52,696 nucleotides of DNA. Source: a virus. Taxonomy: Duplodnaviria; Caudoviricetes. Made by a program: the position numbers and the translations under genes. The stretch is from IMG/VR virus record IMGVR_UViG_3300042934_001015, positions 1 to 52,696 of that record. One strand, given 5' to 3'. Positions 1,356 through 36,190 of the stretch are shown piece by piece. The notes under the pieces were generated by a model. The model had not been told where the DNA came from. It did not search any database and worked only from the letters and a program-made list of their open reading frames with translations. Positions within the stretch are counted from its first letter, which is position 1. Each line of letters starts with the position of its first letter.

Positions 1356-1943
1356 CTATCTAATTTCATCCCATAAATAAACCTTACATTTTATATCAGA
1401 ACATAACGATTCTAGTTTCTTCTTTCTATAAGGTGTTATAGTCACCCAAACAAGTTTGAAATCAGAATTGAAGGAAGCTAACTGGGTATATTTTTTTATT
1501 TTTGCCACATTTTTATTCATCGACTGCTTATAATCTATTTCGACGAAGTGAGAAATTTTATTGGAAGTAAATACTGCATCTGCTACTATAGAAACCTTAC
1601 TATTGGGCATTGTGATTTTAACTTCATTTTTCCAACTAGACGGGCGCCCACTAATGATAAATAAATCATTTCTTATTAAAAAATGGGTTACCATGGCCGT
1701 TTTTTTACGAACCTTTTCAGCCTGAACTCGTTCCCTGCCAGCAGCATTTAAATAATAAATTTTCATCCGATTATCTGTAAAACACGAGATATATTCAGAC
1801 AGCTCACTTAGTATGCGCTGAGCATTTCTGTCTTTGCCAAGATTTATCATTTTTTGGAATTGTTCTCTTGTTAAATAGTCACATCTCCGTAAAAGTAAAA
1901 GAATTTGATCGATTCGATTCTCCCTCTCGCTGTTCAAATCCAT
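1356..1943 (-). CDS. Replication-relaxation family protein
   Basis: wHTH N-terminus (DYLTREQ), H-x-L motif (THFLIRND), PD-(D/E)xK-like ADAVF...FVEID; start reassigned to ~1943/1937 after AAGGA RBS. Confidence 0.75.
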   Translation of the reverse strand: MDLNSERENRIDQILLLLRRCDYLTREQFQKMINLGKDRNAQRILSELSEYISCFTDNRMKIYYLNAAGRERVQAEKVRKKTAMVTHFLIRNDLFIISGRPSSWKNEVKITMPNSKVSIVADAVFTSNKISHFVEIDYKQSMNKNVAKIKKYTQLASFNSDFKLVWVTITPYRKKKLESLCSDIKCKVYLWDEIR

Positions 1944-3180
1944 CATCCTTTCTAGCTTTGATGACAAGGTGTGGTTTAATAACCCTTTCAATTTCCTCAT
2001 TTTCGATAAATGGAGTCTGGACAATACGAACCCCATCCGGCGTCTTGTAAATAGCACGCCCAGGAAACTGCAAAGACTCTGCACCTGATTCATCCAACAC
2101 GACACGGGAAGCTATTGCATCGCGTAATTTGTAGGTAATTACTGTATCGCAATTTTGTTTGATTTGTTTATTCATGACATCAGCTGTAGGGTACTGGGAA
2201 CAATATATGAGCCTATACCCTAACCCTGCACCTATTCGCGCTATTTCCGAGAGCGCTTCTTCGCATTTTCGGGCTTTTTCCCTTTCTTCTTTGCCGGTGA
2301 GGATTTGCGGAGAGATTTGCGCTGCTTCATCAACAATAATGAAATGTCTAGAATCAATCCCAGCTTCTTTAATGTCCTCGGATCCATTTCTATCAAACCA
2401 TCCTTTCATTTCATCCATTTCTTTTTTGACCTTCGTTAACGAATCTAAGGCGGTATCTAAATCCGTAGCGACCATTTCCACCTGCTTGGCGTTTTTAAAT
2501 CTGGTAAATGCCAATCCGCCTTTTAAATCGATGAGGGTGAGTTTTGTGTTACCTGGATTTTGGTGGATTAGGGATGTGATTAGAAGTTTCAGAAAGACCG
2601 TTTTCCCCTTTCTTGTAGCACCAGCTAGTGTTATATGCCCCCTTTCCGTGTCGTGATTAATGAACCCATATCTCGTTTCCCCCAAGGGAACTTCCCAATC
2701 AATACACTGTCCAAGCATTCTTTCATCAAAAAGGACTTTGGTAGGGATATGACGATCTAATACTTTGATATGAAGCATCCCATCATAACTGATCTCAATA
2801 TCTTTTTCAGATACATACCGATTGCCATAGATTTCTTTTATTTGCTTTACGATATTGCCTTTTAGATTCAATTTAGTAACTGACATTAAACTAAATGGCC
2901 CCCTTTTGTTATTTAAGCCGTCCCTCAAATGGCCCAATTTTTTTTCAAAATCCCCAAAAGATAATCCCAGAGGAATCCGATAAATATACTCCATCCCCCA
3001 TTCATGCTCTTTCTTGCGATAGAGTTGTATGGTTTTTATTTCATGCCCCTCCTTAACATACAATCCGGTATTCATAGAAATCTTTTTAATTTTCTCACCG
3101 TCATCTAGATCTGACCTTTTTAAATAACTGATTCCAACTAATCCAACAGCTGCTGAAGTTGTGATAATTTCAAAGAGCAT
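1879..3180 (-). CDS. FtsK/SpoIIIE family ATPase (coupling-protein-like)
   Basis: N-terminal TM, Walker A GATRKGKT, IDLKGG, Walker B IIVDEAA, SQYP, GRAIY. Confidence 0.9.
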   Translation of the reverse strand: MLFEIITTSAAVGLVGISYLKRSDLDDGEKIKKISMNTGLYVKEGHEIKTIQLYRKKEHEWGMEYIYRIPLGLSFGDFEKKLGHLRDGLNNKRGPFSLMSVTKLNLKGNIVKQIKEIYGNRYVSEKDIEISYDGMLHIKVLDRHIPTKVLFDERMLGQCIDWEVPLGETRYGFINHDTERGHITLAGATRKGKTVFLKLLITSLIHQNPGNTKLTLIDLKGGLAFTRFKNAKQVEMVATDLDTALDSLTKVKKEMDEMKGWFDRNGSEDIKEAGIDSRHFIIVDEAAQISPQILTGKEEREKARKCEEALSEIARIGAGLGYRLIYCSQYPTADVMNKQIKQNCDTVITYKLRDAIASRVVLDESGAESLQFPGRAIYKTPDGVRIVQTPFIENEEIERVIKPHLVIKARKDDGFEQREGESNRSNSFTFTEM

Positions 3181-5220: not shown

Positions 5221-6426
5221 TTGCTAAAAAAAATACAAATAACAATTTTGGCGGTATTTATATTTACTATTACCTTTCTGAACTTAGGTAGTATAAATGT
5301 TTCAGCGGATGAAATAGATATTTATAACAGTGCAGTAACTAATGGCTATATTGATAGTTCAATATCTTTTGAAAAATGGTCACAAGCATATAATTACCCA
5401 CCTCCTAGTGACGAAGTTCAGGTATCACCCAAGTTTTACTTATTGCAAGCATCACCTACGACAGTTTACATAAAAAAAGGTGATATCCTAATTACAAATC
5501 ATACTTCTTATGAAGGAATTATTGGCCACGCAGCAATTGCAGTATCAGATAATGTAATTTTAGACATACCTAACAAATATAGTACAACCAGAGTAAAATC
5601 TGCAAAAAAATGGTTAGATCAATATACTGCAGAGGGAGACTGGGTTAAGATATATAGACTACCATCTGCATATAGTTATATTGCCAATAGAGCCGCTGAT
5701 TGGGCATATAAAAATTATTACTCTTCAAATGGTGGTACAGAACAGGATATTAAACCCGAATATGACATTACTCCATCCTTATATAGTACAGACCCGACTT
5801 ATTGTTCTAAAATTGTTTGGCAAGCATATTTTTTTGGCACTGATGAATACGTAGTTAGTGGAGCTTTTTCAACCAATATAGTTCCACCATATTCTTTAAT
5901 TTCTTACTTTAACTATCAATATAAACCAACACATTTGTATGAGTTTGTTAGACCAAACGGTTGGTTTGCTTTAAATGATACATGGTATCATTATGGTCTT
6001 AATGGTAGCATAACATCAGGGTGGGCAAATCTAGAGACGGAATGGTACTACTTAAATCCAAATTATCAAGATGCAATGCATGCAGGGTGGCTTTACTACG
6101 GAGGAAAACATTACTTCTTTAATTTAGCTGCTAATGAACAAGGCCCTAAAGGCGCTATGTGGACTGGTTGGCTCCCTTACGGCGGAAAATGGTATTTTTT
6201 AGATTTAAAAAATGGAGATATGAAAACCGGTTGGCTTCAACTTTCTAATCAAAATGGTTCATTCTGGTATTATCTAAATTCACCTAGCGGAGAAATGAAG
6301 ACTGGCTGGCTTCAACTTGGTACAAGTTGGTACTATCTAAATCCGACTGGAGAAATGGTAACTGGACCAAAAACAATTGATGGAAAAGTATATTATTTTG
6401 ATGTCTCTGGTAAGTTAATTAATTAA
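5221..6426 (+). CDS. Secreted permuted papain-like (YiiX/YycO-type NlpC/P60) enzyme with C-terminal cell-wall-binding repeats (moron)
   Basis: Signal peptide ending VSA; KKGDILIT, GHAAI (His), YCSKIVWQAY (Cys); TGW...WYYL repeats; AT-rich and opposite to the phage strand. Confidence 0.85.
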   Translation: MLKKIQITILAVFIFTITFLNLGSINVSADEIDIYNSAVTNGYIDSSISFEKWSQAYNYPPPSDEVQVSPKFYLLQASPTTVYIKKGDILITNHTSYEGIIGHAAIAVSDNVILDIPNKYSTTRVKSAKKWLDQYTAEGDWVKIYRLPSAYSYIANRAADWAYKNYYSSNGGTEQDIKPEYDITPSLYSTDPTYCSKIVWQAYFFGTDEYVVSGAFSTNIVPPYSLISYFNYQYKPTHLYEFVRPNGWFALNDTWYHYGLNGSITSGWANLETEWYYLNPNYQDAMHAGWLYYGGKHYFFNLAANEQGPKGAMWTGWLPYGGKWYFLDLKNGDMKTGWLQLSNQNGSFWYYLNSPSGEMKTGWLQLGTSWYYLNPTGEMVTGPKTIDGKVYYFDVSGKLIN

Positions 6427-6468
6427 TTAATTAATAGTTTTATAACAAAATATAAAAAATAAATATTT

Positions 6469-6502
6469 ATGCCCCCATCTCGTCGAGACAGGGGCATTTT
6501 TT
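6469..6502. terminator. Terminator between convergent moron and endolysin
   Basis: ATGCCCC...GGGGCAT hairpin with T-tract. Confidence 0.7.
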
Positions 6503-7413
6503 TACAGGAAAGCACCGTCTTTATTTGTTACAGCCATTGATCCACTGGATTGTAGATAATACTTTTTACCACCCAGGTTAATCTCGCCGGTGGCCATATC
6601 TCCCTTAGGGTTAAGGTAATACCATTTACCACTGATATATACCCATCCTGTTTGCATGGTACCAGAAGAGTCCAGGTAATACCACTTTCCATTGTCCTTT
6701 ACCCAGCCAGTCTTCATTGCGCCACTTGAATCGAGGTAATAGTATTTACCTTTTACCTGCTGCCAACCGATCAGCATGACTCCATCAGATCCTAGCAGGT
6801 ACCATTTATTATTATCTAGCACCCATCCACTTTGCTTGACGCCATTTTTGTAAAAGTACCACTTGCCATCGACTTTATGCCAGTAGCTATCCACCATTTC
6901 ATTAACGACGTCATCGATAAACTGCGCCCAGGTAATACCGTTTTTAGCAAAGGCATTTTTGTCTGGGTCCGTTTTTCTCTTAGGATCTAATGTGGAATGT
7001 GCCACAATCTTTTTACGTGGGTCCCAACTAAACATACGGCAAAGGTATGCCCAATACCAAATATACCGTTTGTACGCCTCTGCCCATACGATATTACCGC
7101 CCCAGCATAGTTCTACGCCGATGGCGATATCATTAGCGTCATCACCAAACATCACATTGTCAGTAGTAACATTATAAATAACATGCCAGGCTTTTTCATT
7201 GATAGGGATAATCTCTAAGATATATTTATCATCGATAAACGTCTGAGCTGATGCAGATGGCTGCTCACGGTTAAAATAAGTACGATTGTTATAAGCAGTG
7301 GATCCGCCGTTACCGATATCATGGGCCACACCAAACTGAGGTTTACCACCTACAAGTAACTGTCCACTCCTGGCGTTTCCTTTAGCAATGTAATCCCTTG
7401 TAATTTCGTACAT
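6502..7413 (-). CDS. Endolysin, N-acetylmuramoyl-L-alanine amidase (Amidase_2) with cell-wall-binding repeats
   Basis: VAHD, AWH, IGVELC, VAH...KTDP; repeated GW...GKWYYL. Confidence 0.92.
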   Translation of the reverse strand: MYEITRDYIAKGNARSGQLLVGGKPQFGVAHDIGNGGSTAYNNRTYFNREQPSASAQTFIDDKYILEIIPINEKAWHVIYNVTTDNVMFGDDANDIAIGVELCWGGNIVWAEAYKRYIWYWAYLCRMFSWDPRKKIVAHSTLDPKRKTDPDKNAFAKNGITWAQFIDDVVNEMVDSYWHKVDGKWYFYKNGVKQSGWVLDNNKWYLLGSDGVMLIGWQQVKGKYYYLDSSGAMKTGWVKDNGKWYYLDSSGTMQTGWVYISGKWYYLNPKGDMATGEINLGGKKYYLQSSGSMAVTNKDGAFL

Positions 7414-32427: not shown

Positions 32428-33150
32428 TTACTGAATAAAATCTCTTTTATAATCTAAATAATCTGATTTATGTTTCACTTTATCAATTCTTTCGAATGAT
32501 TCATTAAAAAATTCTTTTGTATTAGTATATTTAATTTTACTTGGTTTTTTTTCACTATTAAGTAGACTAAGTATATTGGTATAAGATTGATCATATTTAT
32601 CCACATTATTATCTTGATCAGTATATTGTAGTTTCTCTAATTTATTAATAATTTGAGTTAAATAATCTTCACTTTTAGAAACACCAAAAGAAGATGATAA
32701 TAAATATAAAATTTCCTGGTTTAAGCTTATTCCGTCAATTTTAGCTTTAGAAACCAAGTCAAAATGTAGTTCTTTAGGAAGTCTTAATAATATTTTCCCT
32801 GAACAGTTTTCAATCTCATTCAGTTGGTTCGGTTTTGGAATTTCTTTACCCAGATCTGCATAAGAATACATCCATGAAATCTTTGCTTCGTCTAAATTTT
32901 TTAATGCCTCTTCCTTTGTATCTCCATGAGTTTTACATCCAGGAAGATCAGGATGCTCTGCAAGCCAGTACGGCCCTTTTTCATCCTGATCTTTAGTTAA
33001 TTTTATCGGGTAGTCTAAATTCAAATAATCTTTAACCTTTTTATACAGTTCACTATTCTCATCTACTTCAATTTCTTCGATTTCTTCATCAGATTCAAAA
33101 AAATCGATATCAATGTTTTTTAAATTGAATTTTTTCTTATTATTTTCCAT
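32428..33150 (-). CDS. hicB: HicB-family antitoxin with N- and C-terminal extensions
   Basis: WLAEHPDLPGCKTHGDTKEEAL, IPKP, SGKILLRLPKELH, GISLNQ. Confidence 0.88.
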   Translation of the reverse strand: MENNKKKFNLKNIDIDFFESDEEIEEIEVDENSELYKKVKDYLNLDYPIKLTKDQDEKGPYWLAEHPDLPGCKTHGDTKEEALKNLDEAKISWMYSYADLGKEIPKPNQLNEIENCSGKILLRLPKELHFDLVSKAKIDGISLNQEILYLLSSSFGVSKSEDYLTQIINKLEKLQYTDQDNNVDKYDQSYTNILSLLNSEKKPSKIKYTNTKEFFNESFERIDKVKHKSDYLDYKRDFIQ

Positions 33151-33421
33151 CTTCATCTTCCTCCTTATAATATCCAAGAAGACTCATTAACTCTTTCATC
33201 TCATCTATTTGATACTTTCTCAGCTCACTCCCTTTTACTAAACCAACAGGTTGTTGTGGAGCGTCTGAATGATGAAAAGTTCGATGACTAGTTCCTTTGT
33301 TTTTTGGAGGCTTACAACCAATACTTATTAAAAATCTTGCTGCTTCATCATATTTTATATCTGTAGGAACAGGTCTTCTATATAGCTTTTCCAGAAATTT
33401 ATCTAATCTACTCAAAAGCAA
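33140..33421 (-). CDS. hicA: HicA-family toxin (mRNA interferase)
   Basis: PTDIKYDE...GTSHRTF (catalytic His)...RKYQI; overlaps hicB. Confidence 0.85.
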   Translation of the reverse strand: MLLSRLDKFLEKLYRRPVPTDIKYDEAARFLISIGCKPPKNKGTSHRTFHHSDAPQQPVGLVKGSELRKYQIDEMKELMSLLGYYKEEDEDGK

Positions 33422-33551: not shown

Positions 33552-34046
33552 TCACGAAACTAAAAAAAGGCTCTCTGATTTTCTTTGTTCAATTTTCTTT
33601 TCTGCTCTTTTCAGGTGGGATTGAACAGTGCTCTTTTTTATTCCCAATAGTTCTGCAGTATACTCGAAAGTAATTCCCTCAACCTTTATCATAAAGAAAA
33701 CATCTTGCTCCCTATCCGTTAATGTGCAAAGGGCATCATCAATCAGTTCTTTCTCAAATCTGCTGATTTCGTGCGCAATCGATTTATAAATAGGCTCAAC
33801 GGGTAAAACATCAAGTACCGCTGGATCCGTCAAATAAACACCATTCTTATCGATTCCACGCCTGGCATCTGGATTTCTTCCACTGCTTAACCATTCAAGA
33901 GCAAATTCCAAGTCACTGATCATGCCGGCAATTACTTTTTTATCATTCTCATCCTGCAGAGTCTTTTCTTCTTTTCTATCTAATTCAGCCTTCATTCTTT
34001 TGGCCTCTCTTAGGGATTTGCGATATTCTGCCATTAATATTCTCAC
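33552..34046 (-). CDS. Xpf-like sigma-type late-gene activator
   Basis: MISDLEFALEWLSSGRNP..RRG; region-4 LTDREQ...TAELLGIKKSTVQSHLKRA. Confidence 0.85.
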   Translation of the reverse strand: MRILMAEYRKSLREAKRMKAELDRKEEKTLQDENDKKVIAGMISDLEFALEWLSSGRNPDARRGIDKNGVYLTDPAVLDVLPVEPIYKSIAHEISRFEKELIDDALCTLTDREQDVFFMIKVEGITFEYTAELLGIKKSTVQSHLKRAEKKIEQRKSESLFLVS

Positions 34047-34347: not shown

Positions 34348-34532
34348 CAGTTTTTGGTTAGGCTATATTTATTTGTGTATGAAATTTCTACCAGTGATAA
34401 ATAAATCACAGTGTGGTAATATACCTTTATAAGAGTGAGGGGTGCGTCTCCCTTAACAACATAATTGTAGACCAAAAGGTCAATATATTTGAACGCACGG
34501 GGAGCCTATATCATGAGTAGGCTCCTTTTTAA

Positions 34533-34721
34533 TCAATCTTCTGGATAAATAACAACCCCTGTTTTACCTTTTACTTCGAAAAGATATACAGTTTGTTCTC
34601 CTGGTACACCATCGTTTTCGATTCCTGAAATTGCTTCTTCATAATCCTTTAAAGCCTTTTCTTCATCATCGTGAAAAACCATATCTTCTGAAGCCGTGTC
34701 ATACACCATCCATTTTCCCAC
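34533..34721 (-). CDS. Small acidic hypothetical protein
   Basis: AGGAGG RBS, GTG start. Confidence 0.65.
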   Translation of the reverse strand: MGKWMVYDTASEDMVFHDDEEKALKDYEEAISGIENDGVPGEQTVYLFEVKGKTGVVIYPED

Positions 34722-34877
34722 TATATAATCCTCCTAAAATGGATATTCCCATAAACTAAGCTGTCCTTTAGCCGGTATAGGCTTGTCCAGCAACCAATTT
34801 TATTTCCTCCCTTATTGTTATCTGTTTCGAACTTCGAATAAAACACCTTATAAAGGGATTTCCCAATTTTTCCATTT

Positions 34878-34903
34878 TTCGACACGATTCGATATGATAA
34901 AAT
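34878..34903 (+). promoter_or_regulatory. 0A box plus extended -10 promoter upstream of the riboswitch
   Basis: TTCGACA (reverse complement of TGTCGAA) at 34878-34884; TGATAAAAT at 34895-34903. Confidence 0.5.
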
Positions 34904-34904
34904 A

Positions 34905-34990
34905 CCTAAATGGGCAAATTTTACGAAAGTAGAAGACGCAAAGCCTCGGGCCTAAAACATTATTGTCATGGTAGCCGGGTTGCCAGATTA
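34905..34990 (+). ncRNA. Cyclic di-GMP-I (GEMM) riboswitch
   Basis: GGGCAAA-TTTTAC-GAAA-GTAGAA-GACGCAAAGCCTCGGGCCTAA...ATGGTAGCCGGGTTGCC: P2 with GNRA loop, GCAAAG junction, P3 with receptor; G20-equivalent is G. Confidence 0.92.
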
Positions 34991-35054
34991 ATTTCTGAAA
35001 TCAGTTTAACCGCCTTTTTCTATTTGCCTAAATATAGAGAAATGGTACCAGAAT

Positions 35055-35411
35055 ATGAAAAAAATCTTAATTGTTGATGATTCACATTTTATGAGAACTT
35101 GGTTAAAGAAGATTTTAAAAGAGAGAAACAATAGCATTATTTTTTTTGAAGCCGAAAACGGATTAAGTGCTTTCCAAGTGTATAAACAAAATTCACCTGA
35201 TTTGGTATTAATGGATATTACAATGCCTAATCAAAATGGACTTGAAGCACTAAAAGAAATACTTAAATTTGATTCAAGGGCGAATATTGTCATGTGTTCT
35301 TCACTTGGACAGAAATCTTTAATTATTGATTCAATTAAAATTGGGGCTAAAGATTTTGTTGTAAAGCCAAATTTTAATAGTCTAGTATCAACCGTTAATA
35401 AATATTTATAG
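35055..35411 (+). CDS. cheY: Stand-alone CheY-like response regulator
   Basis: ILIVDDSHFMR, AENG, PDLVLMDITMP (phospho-Asp), MCSSLGQ, GAKDFVVKP; closely follows the B. subtilis CheY pattern. Confidence 0.88.
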   Translation: MKKILIVDDSHFMRTWLKKILKERNNSIIFFEAENGLSAFQVYKQNSPDLVLMDITMPNQNGLEALKEILKFDSRANIVMCSSLGQKSLIIDSIKIGAKDFVVKPNFNSLVSTVNKYL

Positions 35412-35439
35412 TGCTAAGTTATGAAGCGCTATATATGCT

Positions 35440-35466
35440 GGCACCTTAATGGGTGTCTTTTTTTTC
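35440..35466 (+). terminator. Terminator after cheY
   Basis: GGCACC-TTAATG-GGTGTC followed by T-tract. Confidence 0.7.
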
Positions 35467-35479
35467 GATAAACAATGAT

Positions 35480-35995
35480 TTAAGCAATATTCATTTCGAT
35501 TAACCTAATCTTTTCAGCAACTAAAGCTATAAATTCTGAATTTGTTGGTTTCTCAACCATCCTTTGCACTAAATCAGGATGCTTTGATTTATACCAGGCA
35601 TTCTCAATGGCATGTCGGATAGCCCTTTCAACTCTACTCGATGTGTCATTATATTTTTGGGCGATTAAAGGGTATACCACTTTGGTTATGCCATCTAGTA
35701 ATCTTTGATCTGTAATTTCCATTTTGATAGCTTCTTTTAAATACCTGAATCCTTTGAGATGAACAGCGAATTGATAACTAATTAGAAAATCAAATATTAA
35801 ATTATCCAACTCATTTGAATTAGACTTGGTAATAGAATTAACTTCATGAACTGATTGTGGTGTTACAATATCAATCGTTCCAGTTTCCTTTTCTTGTTGA
35901 GTATTGAGCATTTTTTTCATATCGTGGATTTCATTTCGAAGTCCCTTAATTTCCTCACACAACATTCCTAGTTCAACATTAAAGTTATTCATCAA
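35480..35995 (-). CDS. Spo0A C-terminal effector domain protein lacking a receiver domain
   Basis: HLKGFRYLKEAI, ITKVVYPLIAQKY, SRVERAIRHAIENAW, KPTNSEFIALVAEKIRL. Confidence 0.92.
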   Translation of the reverse strand: MMNNFNVELGMLCEEIKGLRNEIHDMKKMLNTQQEKETGTIDIVTPQSVHEVNSITKSNSNELDNLIFDFLISYQFAVHLKGFRYLKEAIKMEITDQRLLDGITKVVYPLIAQKYNDTSSRVERAIRHAIENAWYKSKHPDLVQRMVEKPTNSEFIALVAEKIRLIEMNIA

Positions 35996-36190
35996 TTACA
36001 CCTTCCGTTTCACCGTAGTTTCCAATCTATCTACCTTACCTCCAAGGGTAACAATTACCGTTTCTCCATATTCAGGGAGGTCATGCTCGATTAACTGGCC
36101 ATCTTTTATTAAATAAATTTTCTTGTTATTCATTAGATCGACTTCAGCTGTCATTTTTTCTAGGTTTATATTCACCAGGACCACTCCCAT
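35996..36190 (-). CDS. XtrA/YqaO-like small protein
   Basis: IKDGQL..HDLPEYGETVIVTLGGKVDR. Confidence 0.7.
   Translation of the reverse strand: MGVVLVNINLEKMTAEVDLMNNKKIYLIKDGQLIEHDLPEYGETVIVTLGGKVDRLETTVKRKV

Follow-up and report, generated by a model that had tools for sequence, protein, structure and literature searches.

A mobile c-di-GMP-I riboswitch cassette with an orphan CheY-like gene in a temperate siphophage

The locus

The stretch of DNA analyzed here, called the window in the following, comprises 52,696 bases and is one whole IMG/VR virus record (IMGVR_UViG_3300042934_001015), with a CheckV completeness of 100%. It belongs to a temperate siphophage, the genes of which lie nearly all on the minus strand. 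On the plus strand, flanked by the replication module on one side and by a PBSX-like late sigma gene on the other, there is a unit consisting of a promoter, a c-di-GMP-I riboswitch, a gene for an orphan CheY-like receiver and a terminator. A first-pass annotation, made from the sequence alone, had described such a self-contained unit running against the phage genes, and the present analysis bears this out. With moderate confidence, we read the region 34871-35466 as a self-contained mobile moron cassette of a temperate PBSX-like Bacillaceae siphophage, in which the riboswitch would act as a translational OFF switch on the CheY-like receiver. The features of the unit are the following (ORF, open reading frame; MFE, minimum free energy structure):

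34871-35404, plus strand: mobile cassette shared with a Bacillales chromosome (promoter, riboswitch and ORF), from blastn against the chromosomal stretch L124
34895-34903, plus strand: extended -10 element TGATAAAAT, TGnTAnnnT pattern
34903-34987, plus strand: c-di-GMP-I (GEMM-I) aptamer, RF01051, 81.3 bits, E 1.6e-14
34911-34919, plus strand: 5' switching strand TGGGCAAAT, part of the aptamer core that can also pair with the leader
35012-35046, plus strand: predicted sequestor hairpin (RNAfold MFE), pyrimidine arm 35012-35023 paired with purine arm 35034-35046
35022-35030, plus strand: anti-sequestor strand ATTTGCCTA, complementary to 34911-34919 and overlapping the top and loop of the hairpin
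35036-35045, plus strand: Shine-Dalgarno-like tract AGAGAAATGG, read from the sequence and separated by 9 nt from the start codon ATG (35055)
35055-35411, plus strand: orphan CheY-like single-domain response regulator of the KPxF type, 118 aa, Pfam Response_reg E 5e-26
35440-35466, plus strand: intrinsic terminator of the cassette, a 7-pair stem (4 G-C) at 35440-35457 followed by T8

The aptamer and its promoter

The match to RF01051 spans the full model (positions 1-87 of 87) against a gathering score of 35, and it is the single Rfam family hit in the whole window. The canonical GEMM-I aptamer that had been proposed earlier is thus recovered by the covariance model, and the distance from the aptamer to the ATG is 67 nt, which places it in the 5' leader of the ORF. 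Judged by its sequence, this element is a real class I c-di-GMP aptamer.

Concerning the ligand, the first-pass annotation had pointed to the G20 residue. A G is indeed found at model position 11, which in our own reading of the mapping is the equivalent of position 20, both in the window and in all of the 14 aligned units (the window, six chromosomal units, five viral ones and two viral ones with another ORF). In the account of the GEMM-Ib aptamer in PMC6456294, an A20G change switches the selectivity from cGAMP to c-di-GMP, and the G in 14 of 14 units argues therefore for c-di-GMP as the ligand rather than cGAMP. The GEMM-I clan does include cGAMP sensors and other variants, and a related cheY-like gene (in L008 and L120) lies behind the c-di-GMP-I-GGC variant RF03167, which could suggest another dinucleotide, for example 3',3'-cGAMP. 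However, the window scores best with RF01051 and has a G, not an A, at the residue described in that paper, and we consider another ligand to be highly improbable.

The extended -10 element and the terminator, both noted in the earlier reading, are present at the positions given above. The TGnTAnnnT pattern ends 7-10 nt upstream of GGCAAA in 13 of the 14 related units, and a promoter scan of the window additionally gives TTTCCA-18-TATGAT at 34869-34898. The spacing of the extended -10 implies that the mRNA probably starts just before the aptamer's GGCAAA core, at a predicted distance of 1-3 nt, so that the switching strand would be a free 5' end.

As a side observation on the riboswitch class, five Bacillales genomes (G001-G005) were found to contain 3-9 c-di-GMP-I aptamers each above the Rfam cut-off, that is, the class is heavily used by such hosts.

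The expression platform

We now turn to the leader between the aptamer and the start codon. As had been claimed, the strands at 34911-34919 and 35022-35030 are complementary, the TGGGCAAAT/ATTTGCCTA duplex having nine pairs, one of them G-U. The logic of an OFF switch built on GGCAAAT and ATTTGCC, which had been proposed on this basis, receives comparative backing. In the 14 aligned leaders, TTGCC is the sole invariant block outside the aptamer, and it is complementary to the invariant GGCAA of the aptamer. The best helix between the 5' part of the aptamer and the leader falls on TTGCC in 10 of the 12 cheY-linked units, ending 22-26 nt before the start codon. Over the 14 units, an 11-pair helix is 85.1% paired, while shifting the partner by one column lowers this to 40-63%, and its covariation score is reached by 4 of 500 shuffles. 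A larger set comprises 53 units, 45 of which have TTGCC, 42 of them distinct. The base pair next to the invariant core is of a standard type in 40 of these 42 (GU 23, AU 10, UA 4, GC 2 and UG 1), a count that was reached by none of 10,000 shuffles.

The conserved strand that is complementary to the 5' core of the aptamer overlaps the Shine-Dalgarno (SD) hairpin. A pyrimidine tract of the CCUUUC type, overlapping TTGCC or just upstream of it, is the SD tract's best pairing partner in 12 of the 14 units, and the anti-SD duplex beats shuffles (at most 30 of 500) in eight of the 14, the window not being among them. Since the register differs among the units, the hairpins were scored sequence by sequence. 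In each of the 14, the switching strand either overlaps with the anti-SD arm or is immediately adjacent to it, and the ligand-free pairing would therefore take away part of the sequestor.

The effect was estimated with a two-state model. In the state with a closed aptamer, the SD tract has a mean unpaired probability of 0.12-0.39 in 12 of the 14 units, and imposing the GGCAAAU/AUUUGCC helix brings this value to 0.36-0.83. The gain is at least 0.25 in 10 of the 14 units, and for the window the value goes from 0.25 to 0.80. Forcing the anti-sequestor helix costs 0.1-4.4 kcal mol−1 compared to the unconstrained ensemble. From these results we infer that the direction is OFF.

It is important to point out that a number of results weigh against this reading. 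The hairpin had been placed at 35016-35041 by the first-pass annotation; RNAfold does draw one over the purine tract, AGAGAAATGG forming its 3' arm, at the slightly wider 35012-35046, but it is no better than those of shuffles (folding z −0.81). The 9-bp long-range helix of the window is equalled by 94 of 2000 shuffles, and its anti-SD duplex by 117 of 500. The window alone is thus indistinguishable from chance, and the case for the leader structures rests for this reason on the relatives. There, the covariation counts ignore kinship among the units, RNAalifold gives no consensus hairpin for the aligned leaders, and in four of the 14 units the SD tract becomes hardly or not at all more exposed in the two-state model. 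Furthermore, the unconstrained MFE of the window already consists of the aptamer plus the hairpin. Finally, by a topological argument, the long-range helix and the lower stem of the hairpin could coexist as an H-type pseudoknot, a class of structure that ViennaRNA cannot model, in which case release of the SD tract would not be guaranteed.

Some of these points bear on the option of an ON switch, in which c-di-GMP would raise the output of the CheY-like protein, either by stabilizing the 5' end of the mRNA or because a pseudoknotted free state would block the ribosome better. The pseudoknot topology is, as we see it, sterically conceivable, the ligand-free MFE already sequesters the SD tract, and the four units just mentioned hardly respond. 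Both ON and OFF switches of the c-di-GMP-I class are known, according to the part of the literature covered by PMC9262584. On the other hand, the overlap or abutment of the switching strand with the anti-SD arm holds in 14 of 14 units and SD exposure goes up in 10 of 14 when the pairing is forced. Moreover, as a matter of general knowledge, low c-di-GMP is the state tied to motility, and it is in line with the usual logic of this messenger that a chemotaxis-type gene be repressed when c-di-GMP is high. An ON switch is therefore judged to be unlikely, and the OFF direction is kept below.

A transcription-terminator platform was also considered for the window and was rejected, as a terminator scan of its leader found none. 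Terminator-like hairpins with U-runs do occur in the leaders of the relatives L120 and L082. The variant c-di-GMP-I-GGC aptamer (RF03167, 69.6 bits) that precedes a KPxF CheY-like gene, at L008 5813-5895 on the plus strand (Filobacillus milosensis) and at L120 1313-1395, has a platform that looks less like an SD hairpin than like a terminator combined with an antiterminator.

The CheY-like protein

The receiver residues listed in the first-pass annotation (DD/D/S/K) are all in place: D8, D9, D54, S82 and K104, as well as F101, are present and show no or almost no variation in 26 relatives. The closest solved relative is the CheY of T. maritima (1.1e-31, residues 2-116), and the top eight PDB sequences are all CheY or CheY fusions (1.1e-31 to 9.2e-26), while Spo0F (3.7e-15) and the Spo0A receiver (1.2e-12) are far weaker. 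The α4-β5 stretch (GQ...I..GAKDF.VKP) is closely like that of Thermotoga CheY in the alignment. Descent of the protein from CheY is thus well supported by sequence comparison.

The identification as CheY itself, which the first-pass annotation had made, holds only in part. In a maximum-likelihood tree of 43 rows, from which the duplicate locus L009 was left out, a 97/97 split separates 22 orphan proteins (DDS...KPxF) from 21 canonical CheY proteins (DDA...KPF). All 43 rows were scanned with Rfam, and an aptamer precedes 14 of the 22 orphan rows compared to none of the 21 canonical ones. The window protein pairs with the chromosomal L094 (96/89), and the remaining phage alleles are split between two further groups. 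This interleaving of phage and chromosomal alleles in the orphan clade implies several exchanges between phages and chromosomes.

Three observations count against a function as a genuine CheY. The window protein lies outside the che-operon CheY clade of the host order. Its chromosomal orphan relatives are never in a che operon among the neighborhoods examined, where the neighbors are unrelated. The NCBIfam CheY cut-offs are missed (CheY_Halo 114.2 vs 200, PRK10610 48.8 vs 189), although this is a weak test because the models were built for haloarchaeal and enterobacterial CheY. The window gene is a lone gene between phage modules, and one chromosomal relative has a gene for a methyl-accepting chemotaxis protein ca 2 kb away on the other strand. 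We therefore call the protein CheY-like, of an orphan clade, with CheY function being putative. A complex prediction pairing the protein with residues 1-45 of a Bacillales FliM gave a score of 0.13 (mark 0.32), which says nothing either way.

Compared to canonical CheY of Firmicutes and Thermotoga (PDB 1TMY, 1U0S, 4IGA), the protein has the same single receiver domain and the D8/D9, D54, S82, F101 and K104 residues. The clade differs in having DDS instead of DDA and KPxF instead of KPF, in being often preceded by an aptamer and, for the closest relatives of the window protein, in the Trp of an FMRxW motif.

A second tie of the orphan clade to c-di-GMP comes from one locus, L122, where a gene on the plus strand (7-1851) encodes the C-terminal part of a GGDEF domain followed by EAL (E 3e-74) and PilZ domains. 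A KPxF CheY-like gene without a riboswitch starts 13 nt later. This looks like an operon, which would make the tie an independent one, in a single case.

Another way of linking the two is known from the Cle proteins. These are defined by an Arg-rich C-terminal extension. In the window protein, the chain ends with ...VNKYL right after the receiver fold, that is, after helix 5, and a c-di-GMP-binding CheY of the Cle type was rejected on the grounds that the extension is lacking. Both kinds are CheY-like proteins that connect c-di-GMP to the flagellar motor, in the window putatively so, but the link in the window would be at the RNA level, whereas the Cle-type proteins of Caulobacter bind c-di-GMP themselves, as described in the part of PMC6200980 that concerns them.

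The same data raise the question of whether the parts identified here might serve something other than motility, i.e. whether the protein acts in another phosphorelay or c-di-GMP network, with an EAL/PilZ partner or as a Spo0F-like sink for sporulation or biofilm formation. The separation of the clade from che-operon CheY is consistent with this, and so are the orphan chromosomal copies beside transporter genes, LexA-glnA and others, the co-operonic GGDEF-EAL-PilZ gene of one member, the significant though weaker relationship to Spo0F (3.7e-15), and a receiver-less Spo0A_C gene that adjoins the cassette (see below). However, among solved relatives the CheY proteins come out ahead by 16 orders of magnitude in E-value, the α4-β5 stretch resembles Thermotoga CheY, and the other cassette-carrying phages have no match to the Spo0A_C gene in the stretches compared. 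We regard a role outside motility as a real but lesser possibility. A Spo0A split between the receiver and the neighboring gene was likewise considered and rejected: the two genes are convergent on opposite strands, the receiver is far nearer to CheY, and the Spo0A_C part is unmatched in the other phages.

A tblastn search of a phage collection gave relatives in 104 records, all below 60% identity. Two of these, MT835480 and MT835474, were set aside as irrelevant, since they encode a canonical DDA/KPF CheY located directly after another ORF, without a leader.

Mobility and spread of the cassette

When the region 34400-36000 was compared by blastn to a 20-kb chromosomal stretch, L124, one match was obtained, in which window 34871-35404 corresponds to L124 9759-10292 with 81% identity over 535 nt. 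The match begins at the promoter and stops at the end of the ORF, with flanks that lack homology. The unit has thus its own promoter and terminator, lies on the opposite strand to the flanking genes, and has homology ending at its borders, as is the case for a moron. Between the two ORFs, dN/dS is 0.21 with a pS of 0.49, and the promoter and aptamer are identical at 105 of 120 positions, the leader being better kept than synonymous sites. It follows that the protein and the leader are both under constraint.

The neighbors of the L124 copy are ABC-transporter, YkyB and sugar-nucleotide genes, and further chromosomal copies adjoin LexA-glnA or aldehyde-dehydrogenase and phosphate-transporter genes. 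No homologues of the structural or replication genes of the window phage were found in ten chromosomal stretches. A protein search of 401 Bacillales genomes yielded 30 loci, 20 of which were scanned with Rfam. In seven of the 20, an aptamer is located directly upstream of the gene (six RF01051 and one of the variant RF03167, with a spacing of 63-105 nt).

Among 12 IMG/VR loci encoding a relative, six have RF01051 directly upstream of the gene, with a spacing of 35-122 nt. Five of these six (L082, L083, L084, L087 and L091) additionally carry, on the strand opposite to the cassette, genes homologous to those of the window phage for the sigma-like, XtrA-like or replication proteins, and in L083, L084 and L091 such homologues are found on both sides of it. 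In the window, the insertion zone is bracketed by the first and last of the following genes:

33552-34046, minus strand: Xpf-like late "positive control sigma-like factor", NF005385, 148.5 bits (cut-off 136), phrog_1190
35480-35995, minus strand: receiver-less Spo0A_C gene, outside the cassette, Pfam Spo0A_C E 2.1e-28, TIGR02875 positions 113-257 only
35996-36190, minus strand: XtrA-like gene, DUF3954/XtrA match

Seen from the XtrA-like gene, the side on which the cassette is inserted differs between the window and all five related phages; the zone is thus common but the exact site is not. The unit is not specific to the window phage. It recurs in phages, as the six IMG/VR loci demonstrate, and the cassette is common to Bacillales chromosomes as well.

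In two of the viral loci, L084 and L087 (position 6001 in both), the CheY-like frame seems to start at ATT (IKSVLLVDDS...), ca 10 nt after GAAGG. The first ATG is 12 codons inside the conserved domain, which means either a non-canonical start or a decaying gene.

To follow the unit further, a 31-nt pattern for the aptamer subtype was used, which matched six IMG/VR contigs and 39 metagenome contigs. The ORF after the aptamer in the 39 is a KPxF CheY-like one in 15 cases and a Cys-rich one of 61-77 aa in 16, while the remaining eight have nothing recognizable or reach the contig end. Only one of the 39 (L145) has homologues of window-phage genes, and for this reason most copies of the cassette appear to be chromosomal or of unclear context, with a minority being phage-borne. 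Locus searches of IMG/VR with the CheY-like or the Spo0A_C protein alone returned nothing, and one search of genome contigs with the CheY-like protein gave at least 600 matches, mostly to canonical CheY, the best among the matches listed being 58% identical.

Altogether, the aptamer subtype is found in at least nine IMG/VR records, before a CheY-like gene in seven and before a small Cys-rich ORF in two. In the seven, aptamer, platform, ORF and terminator are intact, and the alleles share 43-53% protein identity. We conclude from these sequence comparisons that the cassette is a horizontally mobile unit and not a one-off.

It could be argued that the cassette is only a passenger, brought in by illegitimate recombination without benefit to phage or lysogen and perhaps silent in the prophage. 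The phage alleles are not monophyletic, that of the window being nearest to a chromosomal one, the position relative to the XtrA-like gene differs between the window phage and the five related phages, and the aptamer subtype coincides with window-phage homologues in just the one metagenome contig of 39. Against this stand the intact parts in seven viral records despite the low protein identity, the purifying selection (dN/dS 0.21), and the repeated capture into one inter-module zone, which argues for usefulness. We find a mere passenger to be distinctly unlikely, and the reading as a moron under selection is retained.

The units with the Cys-rich ORF (MFYPTV..RHVVKD..C.CG...) share the aptamer subtype, the extended -10 and the TTGCC platform with the cheY-linked ones. 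A search with one member gave no Pfam or PHROG match. They are located as follows:

L135 4284-4653, minus strand, and L139 4172-4550, plus strand: IMG/VR units with the aptamer subtype and TTGCC platform
L146, L147, L148, L151, L154-L156, L159, L160, L163, L164, L166, L168, L169, L172 and L181: metagenome units (16 of 39)

Proposed mechanism and significance

On the basis of these results, the switch may be pictured as follows. When c-di-GMP is bound, the aptamer would keep the 5' GGCAAAU, the leader hairpin would bury the SD tract, and translation would be off. When the ligand is absent, the 5' GGCAAAU would instead pair with the leader AUUUGCC, the top of the hairpin would open and the ribosome site would become exposed, turning translation on. 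This OFF model expects that disruption of TTGCC locks the switch in the OFF state, and disruption of the CCUUUUUC arm in the ON state. It follows from the OFF logic that the CheY-like protein would be made only at low c-di-GMP, i.e. in cells in the motile state.

Under these conditions, the extra receiver would most likely interfere with or supplement chemotaxis phosphosignalling, either by binding to the flagellar switch or by acting as a phosphate sink for CheA. The opposite orientation and the cassette's own promoter and terminator suggest that it would be expressed from the prophage as a moron. In the lytic cycle, minus-strand transcripts would extend through the cassette in antisense; no minus-strand T-run was seen after the Spo0A_C gene when the sequence was read.

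Riboswitches of this class are known before motility genes. The C. difficile flgB OFF switch Cd1 is a c-di-GMP-I riboswitch preceding flagellar genes. For chemotaxis, cheY is among the gene families apparently regulated by GEMM in Table 2 of Weinberg et al. 2007 (PMC1950547). The window shares with these systems the aptamer class and a motility- or chemotaxis-type gene under c-di-GMP. It differs in that the control would be translational, with a 5'-terminal GGCAAAU/AUUUGCC anti-sequestor helix and a leader without a terminator, in having a single orphan gene and not an operon, and in being a ca 0.6-kb mobile cassette found in phages and at scattered chromosomal sites.

In phages, riboswitches have been described as rare. 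The section on phages in the 2017 survey by McCown et al. (PMC5473149) gives only two c-di-GMP-I riboswitches, both in C. difficile prophages, citing Sudarsan et al. 2008, and two cyanophage glutamine aptamers. Like the C. difficile examples as given there, the window has a class I c-di-GMP riboswitch in a temperate Firmicute phage. Unlike them, its host group is Bacillaceae, the unit is present in at least seven IMG/VR records, and the regulated gene encodes a CheY-type signaling protein. One aptamer subtype with a conserved platform in at least nine records contrasts with the rarity reported in that section. A literature search gave no description of a phage-borne c-di-GMP riboswitch before a CheY-type gene, with supplements and most subscription journals outside its scope, so that it may be tabulated there. 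While GEMM before cheY and c-di-GMP-I in C. difficile prophages are thus already known, the recurrent, phage-borne, mobile riboswitch-cheY-like cassette seems to be new within the literature covered. As the cassette is recurrent and mobile, the platform conserved and the protein clade distinct, the finding is broader than the first reading of the locus had it. With regard to function, a putative effect on motility, it is also less certain.

The cassette offers a compact and experimentally testable system for studying how prophages tap into a second messenger of the host, and a clean natural example of a 5'-terminal anti-sequestor design. Through it, the phage could read the sessile-or-motile signal of the host. 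It also connects an orphan CheY-like clade to c-di-GMP: 14 of its 22 members are preceded by an aptamer, and a further one appears to share an operon with an EAL-PilZ gene.

A wider hypothesis, which we put forward only tentatively and consider rather doubtful, is that a lineage of PBSX-like Bacillaceae phages repeatedly captures cassettes under one c-di-GMP riboswitch subtype, with either the orphan CheY-like or the Cys-rich ORF, so that the prophage would read the motile/sessile messenger by RNA and deploy a chemotaxis modulator only in motile cells. If this were true, the modulator might bias flagellar rotation, leading to dispersal of the lysogen or to shielding from flagella-dependent phages. 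Phages would then use riboswitches as a regular sensory device and not just rarely, and c-di-GMP signaling would have, in the KPxF clade, a new branch of output.

The phage and its other genes

The nearest large terminases are PBSX-family proteins of Cytobacillus (81%), Jeotgalibacillus (75%) and other Bacillaceae genomes, which is the reason why a soil Bacillaceae is the most likely host. Among sequencing runs, only one, a DNA run of a soil metagenome, covers most of the stretch (0.98 of sampled words), and it may be where this DNA comes from; RNA runs were absent from the listing. A DNA search of the phage collection with the cassette gave no match, and one with a 25-kb stretch gave only a 75-nt match to Paenibacillus phage Lily.

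In terms of PHROGs, SbcC-like, RecT-like and DnaD-like replication and recombination genes are found at 42-47 kb, and genes for the large terminase, portal, major head, tape-measure and tail-fibre proteins at 13-31 kb. There are also an integrase homologue, two endolysins, a CI-like repressor and an ImmA-like metalloprotease.

The protein of the Spo0A_C gene next to the cassette is 171 aa long, and its N-terminal ca 70 residues have no family match. The gene is convergent with the cassette, and in the compared stretches of the other cassette-carrying phages it has no match. Isolated C-terminal domains of Spo0A are constitutively active, and the window phage may interfere with sporulation control through this protein.

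A few further features of the record can be mentioned. The tyrosine-integrase homologue (11138-12172, minus strand, phrog_1, E 1.2e-57) is not at the genome end but inside the tail-gene block, flanked by a tail-fibre-like gene and the gene of an 885-aa virion protein. The region that separates the late sigma-like gene from the packaging genes contains, at 32428-33421 on the minus strand, a HicB-like ORF (E 6e-10) together with a weak HicA-like one (E 2e-3, below the cut-off). Finally, close to one end of the record there are a gene for an FtsK/SpoIIIE-like protein (1879-3180, minus strand, phrog_1358, E 1.5e-98) and a pair of endolysin-like genes, one on each strand (5221-7413).

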